A program made the translations under genes and the position numbers. The notes under the pieces are model-generated. The model saw nothing but the letters and a program-made list of their open reading frames with translations, did not search any database and had not been told where the DNA came from. DNA of 63,287 bases, counting the filler, from Mustelus asterias (lineage: Eukaryota): assembly GCF_964213995.1 (NCBI RefSeq). It is 3 parts of 3 records of this genome, joined end to end, with 100 filler letters (N's around TTAATTAATTAA, not from the genome) between each part and the next. Parts side by side here need not be neighbours in the genome. Positions count along the whole stretch, not along the records: positions 31,628 to 63,287 come from NC_135829.1; 2 more parts are not named here. One strand, written 5' to 3'. Of the stretch, positions 3,402 through 61,889 are shown one piece after another. Position 1 is the stretch's first letter; the number at the start of each line of letters is the position of its first letter.

Positions 3402-3525
3402 GTGAGTAGTTTTTTTTTCATTGTCCAATTCTCTCACTGTTACTGTCTCAGTGTTAGTCCATATTCCAGAGTAAAAAATCATCACACCAGGATTAATCCT
3501 CGGGTTTTTTGATCTACTTTTACAG

Positions 3526-3837
3526 GTGTCCAGACGCAGGTTGTGTTGACTCAGCCAGAGGCAGAGACCGGGCGTCCCGGAGGCTCCCTGAAACTGACCT
3601 GTAAAACCAGCGGCTTCGATCTCAGCAGCTACTACATGGGTTGGATCCGGCAGGTTCCCGGGCAGGGCCTGGAGTGGCTGGTCAGCTACTATACTTCATC
3701 CGGCAACTACGCCCCAGCAATTAAGAATCGATTTACTGCGTCCAAAGACATTTCAAAGAGCATCTTCGTTTTGGACATGAAGAGCCTGAAGACTGAAGAC
3801 ACCGCCATCTATTACTGTGCATACTACAGCAGTGGGT
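3526..3837 (+). CDS. IGHV: IgM-type VH exon fused in frame to a D1-like segment (VD join)
   Basis: TACAG acceptor ending at 3525. Translation [53 protein letters not shown]...RFTASKD...EDTAIYYCA then YYSSG. Canonical Cys-Trp-Cys present. TGTGCA runs directly into TACTACAGCAGTGGGT instead of the usual AGA(GA) V end. Confidence 0.95.
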
Positions 3838-3875
3838 CACAGTGCTGAGCATAGCGACATCCTCATACAAAAACC
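3838..3875 (+). other. Recombination signal sequence, 22-bp spacer (23-type)
   Basis: CACAGTG (3838-3844), 22-nt spacer, ACAAAAACC (3867-3875). Both motifs are perfect consensus. Confidence 0.95.
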
Positions 3876-14427: not shown

Positions 14428-14527
14428 NNNNNNNNNNNNNNNNNNNNNNNNNNNNNNNNNNNNNNNNNNNNTTAATTAATTAANNNNNNNNNNNNNNNNN
14501 NNNNNNNNNNNNNNNNNNNNNNNNNNN
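14428..14527. other. Artificial assembly spacer
   Basis: Exactly 44 N + TTAATTAATTAA (stops in all six frames) + 44 N = 100 nt. Confidence 0.95.
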
Positions 14528-44400: not shown

Positions 44401-45907
44401 ATGTGTTATTGTGTAAAAACTCAAAACCCTAGTGCACTGTGGCTGCTCCTGCACTCGGTACAATTTTAGAACAACACCTCATTCTATTATCACGGGTATG
44501 TGTGAAAGATGCAATTCTAATGGAGGAAACCACAGGTTTGATTCATTCCTATTTGAAATGTACATTGAAGTGCAATATCTGTTCAGTCTTACAATGAACT
44601 AAATTTTGAGGGAGAAATTCTGTTTCAGTGAGTTTTTCTGGGACCTTGCTGCAGTTGAGACTGTTGGAAGTAATTCCATAGTTATGCATCGTAAAGAGTG
44701 GCTTCACCAATGATCGGAGGTCATGGCTGGGATTCTCCGGCCGTTTACGCCAGTGGGATTCTCCAGACCCGCTGGCAGCGCATCCCGCCCCCGTTGGCTT
44801 CCCGCCGACGCGGGGTGACGTCAATGGGAATTTCCGTTGACAGCAGGCGGGGTCCAGAGAATTCCGCCGCTAGCGAACAACGCAAAGTTGTTGAACCCCA
44901 CCACATTTACCCTGTCAGTCCCAACGGGAAACGCACCAAGCTTCCTATCGATGGCAGCACTTCCTCTGGGAGAATCGCACCCGTTTGTCTTTAGTGATAA
45001 ATGATAAGACTTCAGCCAGGATAATGAGGTTGGCTTGCTAGAGTATAACCGCTGGGCCACCGCAGGGGCTGGGGTGAATTATCGACCCCGACAGTCACAT
45101 TTTAATTTGACGTTTTAAGTTTCCTTTCTACTTTGCTTTTTAGTTTGGGCTGTTCCCCCTCCTTTTGGGGAGCTGCCCCTTTTAATTTGTCCTTCAGTTA
45201 ATTTGATTTAATTTATTTGTTTGGTATTTGAAAAGAAATCTAATTGATGGTTAAATCAGAGCGCCTCATGCTCCCGATTTAAAGCAGGTGTGTCAGATTC
45301 CCAGCCTGCATTCAGCAAGGAACAACTGGAGAGCTGGTTGTGTACAGATGTATGGTGTAAATAAAGTAACTTGGTGACGGGACTTTCGCCTCCGTGGAGT
45401 AATTACAAAAATATTGCAATGTTTGTGTCTTTACCAGGCCTAAATCACGGAGATTTCAGTCACACCAACATTCTAGTACAGCCGGTTCGACCTTCGTCTG
45501 GGCACTGTGACCCAGCACGCCTCCAGCAGGAGTTGGAGATCTCTGGTATCCTGGACTTTTCTGACATGAACAATGGGTATTATGTATCTGATGTGGCCAT
45601 TTCCATAATGTATCTGATGCTGGAGAGCAGCGACCCCGTGAGCGTTGGAGGCCACGTTCTGTCAGGCTTCGAGAGTGTGATCCCGTTGGGCCCCGAGGAG
45701 CGAGACGCGGTGTTCCTGCTGGTTCTCTGCAGGTTTTCTCAGTCGCTGGTTCTGGCGAGATACAACATTCTCCTGTACCCTGAAAACGAAGAGTACCTCC
45801 TGACCACAGCAAGAACTGGCTGGAAGTGTTTACACCAATTGTGGTCGCTGGGTAAAGGGGCAGTGGAAAAGATTTGGTTCGAGACAGCAAAATCCCACAG
45901 TACTTGA
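38493..45907 (+). CDS. HYKK: Hydroxylysine kinase (AGPHD1); coding exons 38493-38820, 39022-39161, 41309-41492, 45438-45907; 373 aa
   Basis: All introns GT-AG with consistent phases (1,0,1); 1122 nt including stop. Motifs PSYDDQNFHV, VRLLSYLPG, NHGDFSHTNIL, SGILDFSDM, VGGHVLSGFES, YPENEEYLLTTARTGWK, IWFETAKS. Lies upstream of PSMA4 in the same orientation, as in other vertebrates. Confidence 0.95.
39420..39965 (-). mobile_element. Rex1/Babar-like LINE 3' end
   Basis: MSATTLTNFYRCSIESILSGCIAAWYG...IIKDPTYPGHSLF and an (ATCAA)n-type tail. Confidence 0.8.
40595..43540. mobile_element. CR1 3' fragments (40595-41000 +, 41660-42140 -, 42950-43535 +) and a truncated V-SINE (42178-42428 +) in HYKK introns
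   Basis: LYKALVRPHLEYCAQFWSP motif and CR1 3' UTR hairpin GGGCTGAATGGCC. Confidence 0.85.
43630..44210 (-). mobile_element. Rex1/Babar-like LINE 3' end
   Basis: KKAHQYLYFLRRLRKFGM, DPTHPGHSLFHLLPSGKRY, RLKNSFF. Confidence 0.82.
44725..44982. mobile_element. MITE-like element with GGG.NGGATTCTCC-type termini (relatives near 31830-31935, 36872-36983, 42457-42558)
   Basis: GGCTGGGATTCTCC at the left and GGAGAATCGCACCC at the right are imperfect inverted termini. Confidence 0.45.
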
Positions 45908-46117
45908 CACAGTCCCTGCTGGGTTCTGTGTATCCCCAGACACACTGGCTTCCAGCATAACAAGGGCACTACTAAAGGGAGAATCATTGAAACAATGTTA
46001 ACCGATAGATTGGCACCCGGAATTATATAAATGTTTTAAGATCTTCATTCCTAAGATACATTTTTTAATCCATTTTTTTCTTCCTTATGGCTAGCTTTCT
46101 GTTGCTTCTCCTGATTC

Positions 46118-46206
46118 AGTAAGAAGTCTCACAACATCAGGTTAAACTCCAACAGGTTTATTTAGAATTACGAGCTTTCTGAGCGCTGCTCCTTCATCAA
46201 GTGAAT
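46118..46206 (-). mobile_element. Single-arm Penelope-type fragment with a degenerate hammerhead
   Basis: Same AGTAAGAAGTCTCACAAC..AGGTTAAA arm as the 56754 and 61106 elements. Minus strand reads TTGATGA-A-GGAGC-AGC-GCTCA-GAAA-GCTC. Confidence 0.7.
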
Positions 46207-46541
46207 CTCCAGATTCAGCTGTAAATCTGTAGACCTCTCTACAACAATTGAGACTCGCATCAGAATTTCCTTTGTCCAGTCCCAAAATGGTGCATCCAAC
46301 CAGTGGGAGGAATATCTCAATGGCAATTGGCTTCACTGACCTCTGAACCTGATTGAGCTGTGGACAATGATGACCAAAGCAAGGAAGAATTAATCCGCAC
46401 AGTTGCTGACCACATTATGGACGATTATGACCATTCCATCATTAGCGGTCGTGACTTAAAACTGCCTGGCCCCTTTAACTCTGGATCAACTCTGCATCTC
46501 TATCATTTAATACGCTCCTCAAAACATGATCCAGCCATCAA

Positions 46542-47893
46542 GGGTGGCACAGTGGTTAGCACTGCTGCCTCACAGCACCATGGACCCAGGTTCGATTCCG
46601 GCCCTTGGTGACTGTGTGAAATTTGCACATTTGCCCTGTGTCTGTGTGGGCTTCCTCCGGGCGCTCCAGTTCCCTCCCACTGTCCGAAGATTGATTGAAA
46701 TTTATTTATTGATTTATCAGTGTCACAAGTAGGCTTATATTAACACTGCAATGAAGTTACTGTGAAAATCCCCTAGTCGCCACACTCTGGCACATGTTCG
46801 GGTACACTGAGGGAGAATTTAGCATGGCCAATGCACCTAAGCAGCACGTCTTTCGGACTGTGGGAGAAACCTGGAACGCCCGGAGGAAACCCACGCAGAC
46901 ACAGGGAGAACGTGCAGACTCCACACAGACAGTGACCCAAGCGGGAATCGAACCCGGGTCCCTGATGCTGTGAGGCAGCAGTGCTAACCACTGTGCCATT
47001 TTGCTGCTCAATGTGCAAGTTAGGTGGGTTGGCCATGATAAATTGCCCCTTATTGTCCAAAGATGTGCAGGTTAGGTGGATTGGCCATGCTAAATTGCCC
47101 CTTAGTGTCCAAAGATGTGCAGGTTAGGTGGATTGGCCATGCTAAATTGCCCCTTACTGTCCAAAGATGTGCAGGTTAGGTGGATTAGCCATGATAAATT
47201 GCCCCTTATTGTCCAAAGATGTGCAGGTTAGGTGGATTGGCCATGCTAAATTGCCCCTTAGTGTCCAAAGATGTGCAGGTTAGGTGGATTGGCCATGCTA
47301 AATTGCCCCTTACTGTCCAAAGATGTGCAGGTTAGGTGGATTAGCCATGCTAAATTGCCCCTTAGTGTCCAAAGATGAGCAGGTTAGGTGGATTGGCCAT
47401 GCTAAATTGCCCCTTAATGTCCAAAGATGTGCAGGTTAGGTGGATTAGCCATGCTAAATTGCCCCTTACTGTCCAAAGATGTGCAGGTTAGGTGGATTAG
47501 CCATGCTAAATTGCCCCTTAGTGTCCAAAGATGAGCAGGTTAGGTGGATTGGCCATGCTAAATTGCCCCTTAGTGTCCAAAGATGTGCAGGTTAGGTGGA
47601 TTGACCATGCTAAATTGCCCCTTAGTGTCCAAAGATGTGCAGGATAGGTGGATTGGCCATGCTAAATTGCCCCTTAGTGTCCAAAGATGAGCAGGCTAGG
47701 TGGATTGGCCATGTAAAATTACCCCTCAATGTCCCAAGATGTGTGGGTTAGGTGGATTAGTGGGGCAAATGAGCGGGGTTATAGGGATAGGATGGAGGGT
47801 GAGCCTGAGTAAGATGCTGTGTCAGAGAATCAGCGCAGACCCGATGGGCTGAATGGCCTCCTTCTGCACTGTGGGAATTCTATGATTCTATGA
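46542..47893 (+). mobile_element. V-SINE interrupted by an antisense SINE (about 46700-46998) and carrying an internal 52-bp tandem array
   Basis: Head at 46542, break after CTGTCCGAAGA, resumption near 47010, CR1-like tail ending ATTCTATGATTCTATG. Confidence 0.85.
47012..47760 (+). repeat. 52-bp minisatellite, about 14 copies
   Basis: GTCCAAAGATGTGCAGGTTAGGTGGATTGGCCATGCTAAATTGCCCCTTAGT starts at 47055, 47107, 47159 and so on to 47731, an exact 52-bp period. Confidence 0.97.
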
Positions 47894-53100: not shown

Positions 53101-54714
53101 TCATAAGTATGGTAATAAAAGCAAAATACTGCAGATACTGGAGAATTGAAATAAAAGCAGAGTTCTACAAACAGTTAGCATTTCAAGTTTAATGTCACTT
53201 CAGGCCTGGTTCCGAGAAGAGTCATATTGGTCTCAGTGTTAGCTCTGTTACTCTGTCCATCATAAATATGATCTCAGATTGTCAGGTTGAGACATTTCTG
53301 CAACAATTGCAATGGATTTTTCATTGCTGATCCTTGATGGATTTACGTGGAGGTACACTACACTGCAGTCATCTGCAGAGGTGTGGTCAGTCGGGTATGA
53401 GAGTGCACCCCCCCCCGGTGCACTGCAGAAGATTCCAGGAGGTCAAATGGCCACCGGAAGTAGCTTTAAGTAAGATCGTCAATGATTGGCACTCGGAGGT
53501 AGCAGTCCTTTCGTGTCAGGCCCCGTCTTTGGGATTTGTATATTTGTCCAGTAAACCCTCACAGTTCAAAGTCTGGCAGCTTCTCCCACTTAAGGTCCCA
53601 AATGAGTTGGAGAAAAGGTGAATAATTTTTGAGTGCACTCCCTATTGTACTGCAGCTCCAACCCAGTCCCATGAGCTTCTGGCTGTTACCAGTCCTGGTC
53701 TGCCCTGTGCTGCATTATTTGGAGTACAGCTTCAGTGGGCAGGGTAAGCAACTTCTTTCCCTGCAGCCGCTTCCCTGGATAATATCCCAAACTTATACTA
53801 ATCCCTGCAAATTGTCATAATTCTCACACGCGCCCTCTAATTCCCAAAACTCCGCTCCGACCCTTGGACTTTTTATTCTGCTTTCCAACAAAATAAATTA
53901 TTTATCCTGGGAATGTTGTCCTCCGAGGAGCCCAATGTTCCAAGTTGCTGTCTAGCCACCAGTTGCTATTGGTGGAAAAAGCCCTGAAATCTAACAAGGT
54001 TCTCGTGTAGCCCTCTGCACCCGCCTGTATTCGGCCACATGGTCACTGGTAACAGATAAGGAAGTGGTGCAGTGGTATTGTCACTGGACTAGTAATCCAA
54101 AGCAAGATCTGGGACTCGGGCTCAAATCCCACCATGACAGATAGCAAATTGAATTCAGTAAAAATCTGCAATTAAAAGTCTAATGATGACCACATTGTCG
54201 ATTGTCGCAAAAACCCATCTGATTCATCAAAATCCTTTAATGTCCTGTGACTCCAGACCCACAGTGATGTGGTTGACTCTTAAATGCCCTCTGAAGAGGT
54301 CTATAGCAAGCCACTCAGTGCAAGGGCAGTTAGGGACGGGTAATAAATGCTGGCCCAGCCAGCGGTGCTCACATCCCATGTAAGAATTTTTTAAAAGTCC
54401 AATTGGCACGAAAAAGGATGTGTAAATTGACACGAGGTCTATAAATACTGTAGCTTAGCAGTATTAAATAGTTACCAAAATTTTCCAAAATTCAGCAAGC
54501 AGTTTTAAATACCCTTAAATTCTAATATTGATTAGATCAGACCATTGTGTGTTTTCGTTATAATGTGATTCTCTTTATCAAAGACCATTTTGAGATGGGT
54601 GTCTCACTGATTCACCACACTCTGGCAAACTAGAGTTGGAAAAGCAAGTTCTGTTTCTGCCAGAGGTGGTGAAGGTTTTGATTTGGATGGTGAATGCCTA
54701 CCATCATCAGTCAA

Positions 54715-56060
54715 TATACACTTTGGGATTCTGACAGTTCCACGTGTTACAAGATTGGCCCATTGGCAGCTTCATAAATGGGGCCAAGGCCATTTGCCAC
54801 CCTGTAAGCTTGATGCTGAAATAGGACATTTGGAAAGCATCCTGCGGGATAATGACTATCCTGATCAGATCATTTTGTGCTACATATCGTGCAAACTCGT
54901 GAATGGGCCTCAAGGCTGTCACCTTCAGCGCTGAGAAGGGCCCAGTCTACCTCAGATTACCCTGGGAGGACAAGCTGTCTCTCACTAGCTGTTTCACGCT
55001 GTTACTATGCAGTAACAACACAAATATTCTCCACTAACAGAATGCTGTCATCACGCTGAAAAGACATTCTGCCAATCGCACAAATGGATTACGGTGTATG
55101 AATTGCTGTGCCAGTGTGATGCCAGCTATGTAGGCAAAGGTTGGCTCATAATATCGTACAGCATGTCCCTTCCACTGTGCACAGACCATACCCAACCAGC
55201 TCGTACTTGCAAAATTTAAAACACAGTGTCCGGGACTAGATGAAATTCTGTGATTGGACAGCCTTTGCTAAATAATTCACATTGTGCTAAGAATCACACT
55301 GATAACCAATTTAAGATTATCAATCAGGCTGGCATTGTGGTGCATTTGCATGTATTGGAAGCTACATATATTAATACATAGGAATCCTGTTCTTTGCAGA
55401 CAGAAAGAACATGCATACACATTGCACCTGTTTCAGCTAAACAAAATAAGTGTCAGCCATTTGCTGGTTCATTCCCCAGTGAAACGCCTTGATCATCAAT
55501 CAGAGTCGAGCTCCCTGGTTTAAATTTCAAACTATGCTTGCCAGTTAACTTTCAGTCTCTTTCAACTGGTGCGTTCTCCATGCGAGTTCCTCTCCCCATC
55601 AGAGTCCACTTGCCAACCAATAGGCACTCTCTTCTCACACGATCTAAATTTGTTGATTTCTCCTGATGTTGATGTTAGAAATCATAGAAACCCTACAGTG
55701 CAGAAGGAGGCCATTCGGCCCATCGAGTCTGCACCGACCACAATCCCACCCAGGCCCTACCCCCACATATTTACCCGCTAATCCCTCTAACCTACGCATC
55801 CCAGGACTCTAAGGGGCAATTTTTAACCTGGCCAGTCAACCTAACCCGCACATCTTTGGACTGTGGGAGGAAACCGGAGCACCCGGAGGAAACCCACGCA
55901 GACACGGGGAGAATGTGCAAACTCCACACAGACAGTTAACCGAGCCGGGAATTGAACCCGGGACCCTGGAGCTGTGAAGCAGCAGTGCTAACCACTGTGC
56001 TACCGTGCCGCCCTTCTTGTGTGAATGTCCTGATGAGTGCAAGATGAACAGCTTCGACAA
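54715..56060 (+). mobile_element. Decayed Penelope-like element (RT C-terminus, GIY-YIG endonuclease, 3' hammerhead), interrupted by a V-SINE at about 55675-56012
   Basis: KLDAEIGHLESILRDNDYPDQII; VYLRLPW; VYELLCQCDASYVG at 55094-55135; QFKIINQA...LHVLEATYI...PVLCRQKE. Stops and frameshifts present. Hammerhead-like motif at 56026-56059. Confidence 0.85.
56026..56059 (+). ncRNA. Minimal hammerhead ribozyme remnant, probably inactive
   Basis: TGTC-CTGATGA-GT-GCAAG-AT-GAAC-AGCT-TC-GACA. Stem I TGTC/GACA and the CUGAUGA core are intact, but GAAA has become GAAC. Confidence 0.65.
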
Positions 56061-56753
56061 AAAATGTAATAGAAAGTGAAGCTTTTGTGGTTTTAGGCCT
56101 TGTAAAAATTCGAAACAAGTTTCCTAATAGATGTGGAATGGATTACAAATGCGCTTGGTAGCAGCTCGATTAAAATGTGTGGTGAGGTATACCACCCTCG
56201 GTTAAATCTCCATTCCCAGATGTGGCCCTCCAGCCGCAAGGTTTGCCCAGATGTGTGCGAGGACCATTCTGAGGACACAGAAAGCTGATCTTCTCAATTA
56301 AGTGAAACTTGTGCCTTAGGCTAAACAAATCTGTCATTATTTAGAAATTCATTCCAATTACAGGTTAACCAATATATTGTTGACTTTCAGATTTTCTGTG
56401 CAAATATGCTGGAAGCAACATTCTGCCAATGGAATGTAAACACATATTCGAATAGTTTAACATCTTTTATATTTGATAATCTCAGGGAAGGAGATTTGTA
56501 GTCCCTCCATATCTGTGACAGATCATTTGACCAACTTTATGAGACCCAATTTTAACCCATAAGTGAGTGGTTTTGAAGGGGCTAAACTGGGGCTAACTAT
56601 GTCTTCATATTGGAGAAATTCTGTTGCTGTTTATCTCAGAGTGGGTGATAATTGTAGAAAGTGTGTGTTTGTGTGTGTCTGTCTTGTCTGATATAGGAAC
56701 AAGTTAAAAATAAAAAATAAATGGCCACTTGGTTCACTGTATTCTCAAATTCC

Positions 56754-57094
56754 GTAAGAAGTCTCACAACACCAGGTTAAAGTCCAACAGGTTTATTTGG
56801 TAGCAAATACCATAAGCTTTCGGAGCTTGCTGCTCCTTCGTCAGATGGAGTGGTCTCTGTTCTCCAACAGTGCACAGACACAGAAATCAAGTTACAGAAT
56901 ATAGTATTCTGTAACTTGATTTCTGTGTCTGTGCACTGTTGGAGAACAGAGACCACTCCATCTGACGAAGGAGCAGCAAGCTCCGAAAGCTTATGGTATT
57001 TGCTACCAAATAAACCTGTTGGACTTTAACCTGGTGTTGTGAGACCTCTTACTGTGCTTACCCCAGTCCAACGCCGGTATCTCCACATCATGAC
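56754..57094 (+). mobile_element. Fold-back Penelope-type short element with 12-bp TSD
   Basis: 148-bp inverted arms (56754-56901 / 56905-57052, one mismatch seen), 3-nt loop, 42-nt unpaired extension. TTCTCAAATTCC duplicated at 56742-56753 and 57095-57106. Confidence 0.9.
56958..56996 (+). ncRNA. Minimal type I hammerhead ribozyme motif (mirror copy on - at 56810-56848)
   Basis: CCAT-CTGACGA-A-GGAGC-AGCAA-GCTCC-GAAA-GC-TT-ATGG: stem I CCAU/AUGG, stem II GGAGC/GCUCC, palindromic AGCU in place of helix III. Confidence 0.8.
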
Positions 57095-57408
57095 TTCTCA
57101 AATTCCAACAGCTTTGAGTTAAACGTCACATTGACTGAGATGTACATGTTAATGCTGGTTCTACTCAAACTTGTTTCTTGGCTGTTCCTTACGGATGAGC
57201 AAAACGAGGCCAAATTATCCCCTTCATCTGTGTCGACCTTCTGGTTGCAAGCTATTCTGTCTGAGTGCTTGATTAAAGCTTAACTGTGTTGTCAGCATTA
57301 AGAAGATATTCGGGACAGATACTGTCAGGTCTTGTTTCAGCAGAGTATCGCACACATTAACTAATTCCTTTTTCTGTTCCCAGATTTTTGATCTAACCTC
57401 AGAACACG

Positions 57409-61889
<4,481 letters not shown>

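Follow-up and report, generated by a model that had tools for sequence, protein, structure and literature searches.

A short fold-back insertion in a proteasome-subunit gene of Mustelus asterias, probably a truncated Penelope-like 3' end laid head-to-head

The window analysed here (the whole stretch of 63,287 nucleotides, filler included, from Mustelus asterias) carries on its plus strand a gene for a proteasome alpha subunit, recognised by Pfam PF10584 and PF00227, which we take to be PSMA4 from its N-terminal sequence. A short fold-back insertion, here called element A, sits in the intron preceding the 28-nt exon that holds the start ATG, about 290 bp upstream of that exon. One contig of run X3, a run whose kind is unrecorded, halts at the last base of the ATG exon, and on this account X3 may be RNA.

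The surroundings are varied. An exon of the phosphotransferase family lies at 45365-45904 (Pfam APH, E 0.00038, below the cutoff); it is presumably HYKK, going by synteny with PSMA4. An immunoglobulin V-set exon (3513-3845, Pfam E 4.4e-17) lies, across N gaps, about 42 kb from this kinase-like exon and from the proteasome gene, and the association may be true linkage or a scaffolding join. The gap fillers at 14428-14527 and 31528-31627 are identical, each consisting of 44 N, a 12-bp AT palindrome and another 44 N; they are assembly artefacts, which repeat finders call as palindromes. A 52-bp unit derived from a local SINE-like repeat forms a tandem array at 47011-47760. Upstream of element A, at 54600-55520, there are decayed reading frames that presumably resemble two domains of an old Penelope-like element of unrelated kind, its RT thumb and one similar to GIY-YIG; as a relic of that kind they gave no Pfam matches, and none of 15 homology-search candidates supported it.

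Element A is an insert of 341 bp (56754-57094) between two 12-bp direct repeats; the chance of its given 12-mer recurring at one given place is 6e-8. The two arms, 56754-56901 and 56905-57052, are 148 nt each and form an inverted repeat with a sole mismatch at 57046. They are separated by a 3-nt loop, TAG, and a 42-nt extension (57053-57094) is found on one side only. Insert size, duplication, arm length, loop and extension had all been described in a first-pass annotation of this DNA, and all the coordinates check, with the one mismatch to be added for the arms. The arm length of 148 nt rests on the window assembly, no listed contig crossing the entire insert. The TAG loop is probably family sequence kept in the tail-bearing arm only; one X3 contig matches from 56902 and has other letters further upstream. 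The inner joint is without microhomology, and no direct repeat of the unit occurs in 55500-58500. At the end of the extension, which we call the tail, is an ATG (57090-57092) that might be an ORF start; stops are found in all three frames between the predicted ribozyme cut and this ATG. The tail has partial complementarity with the arm immediately before it (57014-57076), and the stem formed encloses the tail-less end. The segment 57000-57094 folds to -20.4 kcal/mol (z -1.71), and the modelled stem is a candidate structure for setting the two start sites of reverse transcription considered below.

Table. Coordinates of the fold-back elements, their parts and the neighbouring exon, as positions in the window
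Feature	Position	Strand	Remark
Element C, older single-arm tail-less copy	46107..46218	-	arm 46120-46205, decayed hammerhead
Element A, left copy of 12-bp target-site duplication	56742..56753	+	direct-repeat comparison and organism B contig
Element A, inverted tail-less arm, 148 nt	56754..56901	-	first fixed 3' end of the family at its outer end
Mirror copy of minimal hammerhead, inverted arm	56810..56848	-	descriptor search
Element A, tail-bearing arm, 5'-truncated at 56902	56902..57052	+	includes the 3-nt 'loop' TAG
Minimal type I hammerhead, tail-bearing arm	56958..56996	+	descriptor search and folding
Element A, one-sided 'tail', 42 nt	57053..57094	+	spans the gap between the two fixed 3' ends
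Element A, right copy of target-site duplication	57095..57106	+	
Host gene, 28-nt exon	57384..57411	+	closes with the start ATG of the proteasome gene
Element B, fold-back, opposite orientation to element A	61094..61382	-	3' family common to A, different upstream subfamily

We aligned the contigs of four of 24 public runs to 56300-57500 at 85% likeness. Contigs of organism A run from each unique flank into element A, in head-to-head orientation. In organism B, a contig that covers 56300-56723 and then 57095-57500 has 28 letters in place of the window's 371 in between, and it resumes exactly at 57095, that is, at the right duplication copy; a contig of organism E has 108 letters where the window has 447. 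The orthologous site is without element A in both of the other organisms examined, which bears out the recent insertion proposed at first reading: element A was inserted after organism A split from these two organisms. The empty-site contigs of organisms B and E carry 10 and 14 letters, respectively, beyond the expectation for a clean empty site. Their alignments break 18 nt before the duplication, at 56724-56741, and carry these 10-14 extra letters; beside the insertion, a small deletion or other change may have occurred in organism A. The arms of element A diverge at 1 of 148 positions (0.7%, interval 0.02-3.7), and the flanks of organisms A and B at 35 of 830 (4.2%). The right junction is present in both organism A samples examined, of which sample S2 is possibly not an independent animal.

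Two further family members in the same window had been missed at first reading. Element B, less than 5 kb from element A, is inserted in a host repeat within a later intron of the proteasome gene; another copy of this host repeat, at about 47812, has the target site once. The 12-bp duplication of element B (61094-105 and 61371-382) encloses an element spanning 61106-61370, with a 36-nt tail on one side (61106-141), arms of 108 nt (61142-249 and 61264-371) that have 3 mismatches (97%), a spacer of 14 nt and two intact hammerhead cores. All four arm mismatches in elements A and B lie in the tail-bearing arm; we rejected this pattern as a signal, four being too few. Element C has a 13-bp duplication with 1 mismatch, a 3' end with three bases in common with the duplicated target, and a decayed hammerhead in which position 17 is C and helix I has two compensatory changes.

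All three elements have the same tail-less end. The tail measures 42 nt in element A (40 to the common end of the family at 57092) and 36 nt in element B, and is absent from element C; the tail-bearing arm is the longer one, by 3 nt in A and 14 nt in B. Within A and within B, the two arms have their subfamily marks in common, namely the length of loop II (5 versus 3 nt) and the upstream sequence, as expected if both arms came from one template.

A descriptor of the minimal type I hammerhead, run on both strands of the whole window, gave four matches, all within element A and its sister element B (61.1-61.4 kb). Thirty dinucleotide shuffles gave a mean of 0.17 hammerhead loci of any quality and none of equal quality, which upholds the earlier claim of a minimal hammerhead in each arm. 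Helix I of element A pairs 56958-61 with 56993-96; the core is at 56962-68 and the unpaired A at 56969, followed by helix II (56970-74 with 56980-84), GAAA (56985-88) and the palindromic AGCU (56988-91). The cut is predicted after U56992, in the triplet CUU, the same position and triplet as originally proposed. Rfam at its gathering threshold had no matches in the window, a blank that is uninformative for minimal hammerheads. The first-pass annotation had also spoken of a ribozyme on both strands. A hammerhead is indeed found in both arms, but its presence on both strands is a mere result of the inverted duplication, and we reject it as a separate feature. Among the loose-end consensus rows displayed (see below), position 17 is C, U or A, and other versions of the hammerhead have UCAC/GUGA or CCAC/GUGG in helix I versus CCAU/AUGG, these pairings being drawn from separate consensus rows and not from single molecules. 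In element C, two of the four helix I pairs are changed on both sides (three sequences compared; 72 of 500 shuffles reach this count).

The full element A RNA folds to -292.6 kcal/mol. The closing pair of helix II has a probability of 0.0 in this full hairpin versus 0.75 in a lone arm, and so the folding agrees with the suggestion, made at first reading, that the long hairpin would sequester the ribozyme. The isolated hammerhead folds no better than shuffles (z -1.27). According to these models the ribozyme of element A is probably silent in the host pre-mRNA, because it lies opposite its own complement in either transcript and because head-to-head copies cannot form a tandem dimer.

The same public runs give a view of the family. 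The numbers of records aligning to 56300-57500 in the four runs are 54,851, 2,037, 42,505 and 99,324, and the tables drawn from them comprise 1,000 joints, 615 between-letter rows, 1,134 loose ends and 188,873 pieces, of which 15, 12, 24 and 32, respectively, are displayed. Depth over the upstream segment specific to element A is 519,011 in X1 versus 6.06 in X5 and 2.42 in X16 (summed contig depth is not taken as copy number); this type of upstream segment is almost confined to organism A. Among the loose ends listed, records pile up at 56754 (849 in X1, 583 in X5, 1,940 in X16), at 57055 (286 in X1) and at 57092 (284 in X1, 22 in X3, 570 in X16). Family copies thus end at two fixed 3' sites, one at 57052-55 (with its mirror at 56754) and the other about 40 nt away at 57092. 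Past the tail ATG, the loose-end consensus reads GCT ACA or GCA ACT, with a low agreement of 0.34-0.43.

We found 1,000 distinct fold-back joints across the four runs, at many depths. In all 15 of the joints listed no more than 15 nt separates the ends of the two arms, and some joints recur at 15-80 times single-copy depth (in X1, identical joints have depths of 280-1,440, single-copy flanks about 19). Fold-back microhomology is strongest at 56994-57000, where it reaches 6 bp, and the recurrent joints sit there. The family is abundant, its two 3' ends are fixed, and its 5' ends are heterogeneous and mutually coupled. No description of this shark family appeared in the literature searched on Penelope, sharks and inverted repeats, a search with most subscription papers and Repbase/Dfam outside its scope; neither family motifs nor shark names occur in the supplement of PMC8557442 or in supplement file 2 of PMC4209133.

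We think it highly likely that element A is an extremely 5'-truncated, dead-on-arrival 3' end of an abundant shark Penelope-like family, a pseudo-LTR (pLTR) with minimal hammerhead and tail, laid head-to-head in one retrotransposition event, with the hammerhead as a passenger from the parent element. Its membership of the Penelope-like elements (PLEs) rests on non-coding features. Like a canonical EN+ PLE it has a minimal type I hammerhead with the traits given in PMC4209133, fixed 3' ends with variable 5' truncation, an optional tail of 30-40 bp at one end only, and a head-to-head inverted 5'-truncated copy with a target-site duplication. The available text of PMC3846280 describes a typical Penelope unit as pLTRs next to which lies an inverted pLTR, one of the inverted copies bearing a tail of 31 bp, with an 8-10-bp duplication; it reports that head-to-head palindromic joints are frequent, ascribing them to self-priming on an antisense template, and that pLTRs allow trans-mobilisation. 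The same picture of the unit is given in the accessible parts of PMC8557442, PMC2377424 and PMC8969392. For minimal hammerheads, PMC4209133 as excerpted lists a nucleotide between 9 and 10.1, G10.1-C11.1, a palindromic 15.2-16.2 and a helix I of 4-5 bp, with weak activity as dimers and none as monomer, and mentions hammerhead pairs on opposite strands, 100-700 bp apart.

Head-to-head inverted ends with a one-sided tail and a duplication are already on record as an insertion pattern of Penelope-like elements. A Penelope-type origin, as proposed at first reading, is supported by the inverted truncated copy, the one-sided tail, the duplication and the traits of the hammerhead. Of the two forms that the proposal took, the heavily truncated and inverted Penelope insertion is favoured, since it fits the published insertion pattern; against the mobile retrozyme- or MITE-like family stand heterogeneous joints and arm lengths, unequal ends and the absence of tandem units. 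Protein searches tied no RT or GIY-YIG ORF to this 3' end. The arm read-through gave no match among five candidates, a weak blank given that the sets searched hold few shark sequences. Further protein searches gave four matches, none with an RT domain; two look unrelated, and the other two are translations, free of stops, of other copies in the family, and end abruptly at the tail. The family motif has no matches in viral, metagenome and prokaryote genome contigs, where shark DNA is not expected.

How one event might lay down two inverted ends is suggested by in vitro work on the anole Poseidon protein. According to the available text of PMC11167929, this protein, a predicted dimer, nicks and extends both target strands, and reverse transcription starts at two RNA sites bounding the tail; ribozyme cleavage is not needed in vitro, and no reads are reported at the cut. 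The two fixed 3' ends of the shark family (57052-55 and 57092) match these two start sites. By analogy we lean towards twin priming on one RNA. A dimeric RT/GIY-YIG protein would nick both target strands 12 bp apart; one cDNA would be primed from the downstream start site, with tail, and the other from the upstream site, without tail, on the same RNA. Both cDNAs would stop near the same point, their 3' ends would join with little or no microhomology, and fill-in would leave the inverted repeat, the one-sided tail and the duplication. Twin priming is the simplest account in that no additional step would be needed to obtain the inverted repeat, the one-sided tail, the duplication, arms that match and inner ends that are coupled. 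In a less likely but still sizeable possibility, the first cDNA would fold back and prime itself, the endonuclease then cutting at the upstream site. Such cDNA fold-back fits the coupled ends too, as well as a tail arm that is longer by 3 nt in element A and by 14 nt in element B, but a second cut is required if it is to stop at the upstream site. Self-priming on antisense RNA, as suggested in the available text of PMC3846280, seems improbable to us as the step concerned.

A possible objection to our interpretation is that the fold-back units are copied as such, Penelope enzymes mobilising them as a non-autonomous family of the MITE or retrozyme type. The identical joints far above single-copy depth in X1 would suit this, as would the presence of two fold-back copies, A and B, within 5 kb, and animal retrozymes have been argued to be non-autonomous PLE derivatives (available text of bioRxiv 10.64898/2026.07.22.740005). 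We nevertheless give self-copying little chance of being right. There are 1,000 distinct joints, and neither arm length nor spacer nor subfamily is the same in A and B; the recurrent joints lie at the strongest microhomology, so independent recurrence suffices to account for them. Moreover, the upstream start site and the ribozyme would be hidden in the duplex of a fold-back RNA, and the ends are unequal with no tandem units. A similarly slim prospect is that the parent was a linear non-coding PLE derivative borrowing enzymes in trans, which would leave the insertion mechanism unchanged. The protein searches indeed gave no link to an ORF, there are stops in all frames from the cut to 57092, unlike the anole element with its ORF starting inside the hammerhead (PMC11167929, available text), and trans-mobilisation by pLTRs is reported in that of PMC3846280. 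Against a non-coding parent, the protein blank is weak for the reason given above, and the tail ends at an ATG whose low-agreement continuation is compatible with an ORF start.

It is very improbable that the host has domesticated element A as an intronic ribozyme or regulatory dsRNA hairpin of the proteasome-subunit gene. It does lie in an intron of a housekeeping gene, and its right junction is found in both organism A samples, but the orthologous site is empty in both other organisms, the family is enormous with three copies in the 63-kb window, and the probability of the ribozyme fold is 0.0 in context. Hardly credible, finally, is an assembly or library fold-back artefact. That no listed contig crosses the whole insert would be consistent with one; the exact 12-bp duplication, the arms that differ at one base, the empty orthologous sites and the short-read contigs leading from each unique flank into the element, head-to-head, all argue against it.

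Given a truncated Penelope-type end copied by reverse transcription, the inner ends of the shark fold-back copies might accumulate at the base directly following the predicted cut, both RTs running off the 5' end of a ribozyme-cleaved RNA. We consider this unlikely, with evidence on both sides. Of the 15 joints listed (from 1,000), three resume at 56993, which immediately follows the predicted cut, whereas the stretch 56954-56991 contains the end of none of them; of the nine X1 between-letter rows listed, four reach or can reach the base equivalent to 56993 in a sister subfamily, the existence of which is also suggested by the stop-free translation of another family copy. Against a pile-up at the cut, the strongest microhomology (56994-57000) and a hairpin (56994-57008) adjoin it, and the hairpin could explain the joints there equally well; other subfamilies stop aligning at the cut, an alignment limit; and elements A, B and C all run through the ribozyme. 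If true, such a pile-up would count as evidence, at the level of the genome, for in vivo cutting by the minimal Penelope hammerhead and for retrotransposition of the cut RNA, and sharks would be a natural data set for the mechanism of Penelope inverted repeats.

Element A itself is probably inert, one of very many truncated Penelope-type ends. Lying in a housekeeping-gene intron, its 148-bp hairpin would, on the folding model, probably be a substrate for editing or a dsRNA substrate, and fold-back Penelope copies of this kind can be mis-annotated as MITEs. The family carries more weight than the single copy: with its thousands of short fold-back insertions, the joints of which can be read, it offers a direct test of Penelope inverted-repeat formation and of in vivo hammerhead cutting.

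MITEs and fold-back DNA transposons are short, with a long inverted repeat and a flanking duplication, as is element A. The shark family differs from them in having unequal termini, variable arm length and a single-arm member with a duplication (element C); in place of TIRs at both ends and uniform length it shows a one-sided tail, arms of 148 versus 108 nt and 1,000 joints. With non-LTR retrozymes (PMC7229834 and bioRxiv 10.64898/2026.07.22.740005, available text) element A has in common that it is small, non-coding, hammerhead-bearing and PLE-related. Retrozymes are described there as head-to-tail tandems, mostly with canonical type I hammerheads, that are expressed as circles, whereas element A is head-to-head with a minimal hammerhead; the head-to-tail hammerhead units that mark retrozymes are absent, A and B being head-to-head and C single.

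The Penelope/Poseidon insertion units described in the available text of PMC3846280, PMC8557442 and PMC2377424 resemble element A in the head-to-head inverted 5'-truncated copy, the tail at one end, the short duplication and the strong 5' truncation. Element A differs in comprising only about 190 nt of the 3' end, with no ORF, and the duplications of A, B and C are 12, 12 and 13 bp versus 8-10 bp in the rotifer examples. Compared with the metazoan PLE minimal hammerheads of PMC4209133, the accessible text of which does not name sharks, the CUGANGA core, the unpaired nucleotide before helix II, G10.1-C11.1, GAAA, the palindromic stub replacing helix III and the 4-bp helix I are common to both; helix II is 5 bp here versus 7-8 bp in Schistosoma. 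Opposite-strand pairs, as in element A, are known from that text in Schistosoma and a bracovirus PLE.

The closest parallel for the two 3' ends is PAc, the Poseidon of Anolis carolinensis, for which the available text of PMC11167929 contains no discussion of inverted copies. In PAc the ORF starts at helix II within the hammerhead and the tail is coding, whereas here the frames are closed until the ATG at the tail end. Both elements have two 3' ends bounding the tail; the distance from cut to tail end is 100 nt here versus 85-92 nt in PAc (by subtraction of the coordinates in that paper), and the tail region here can fold into a stem-loop that we liken to that of PAc.
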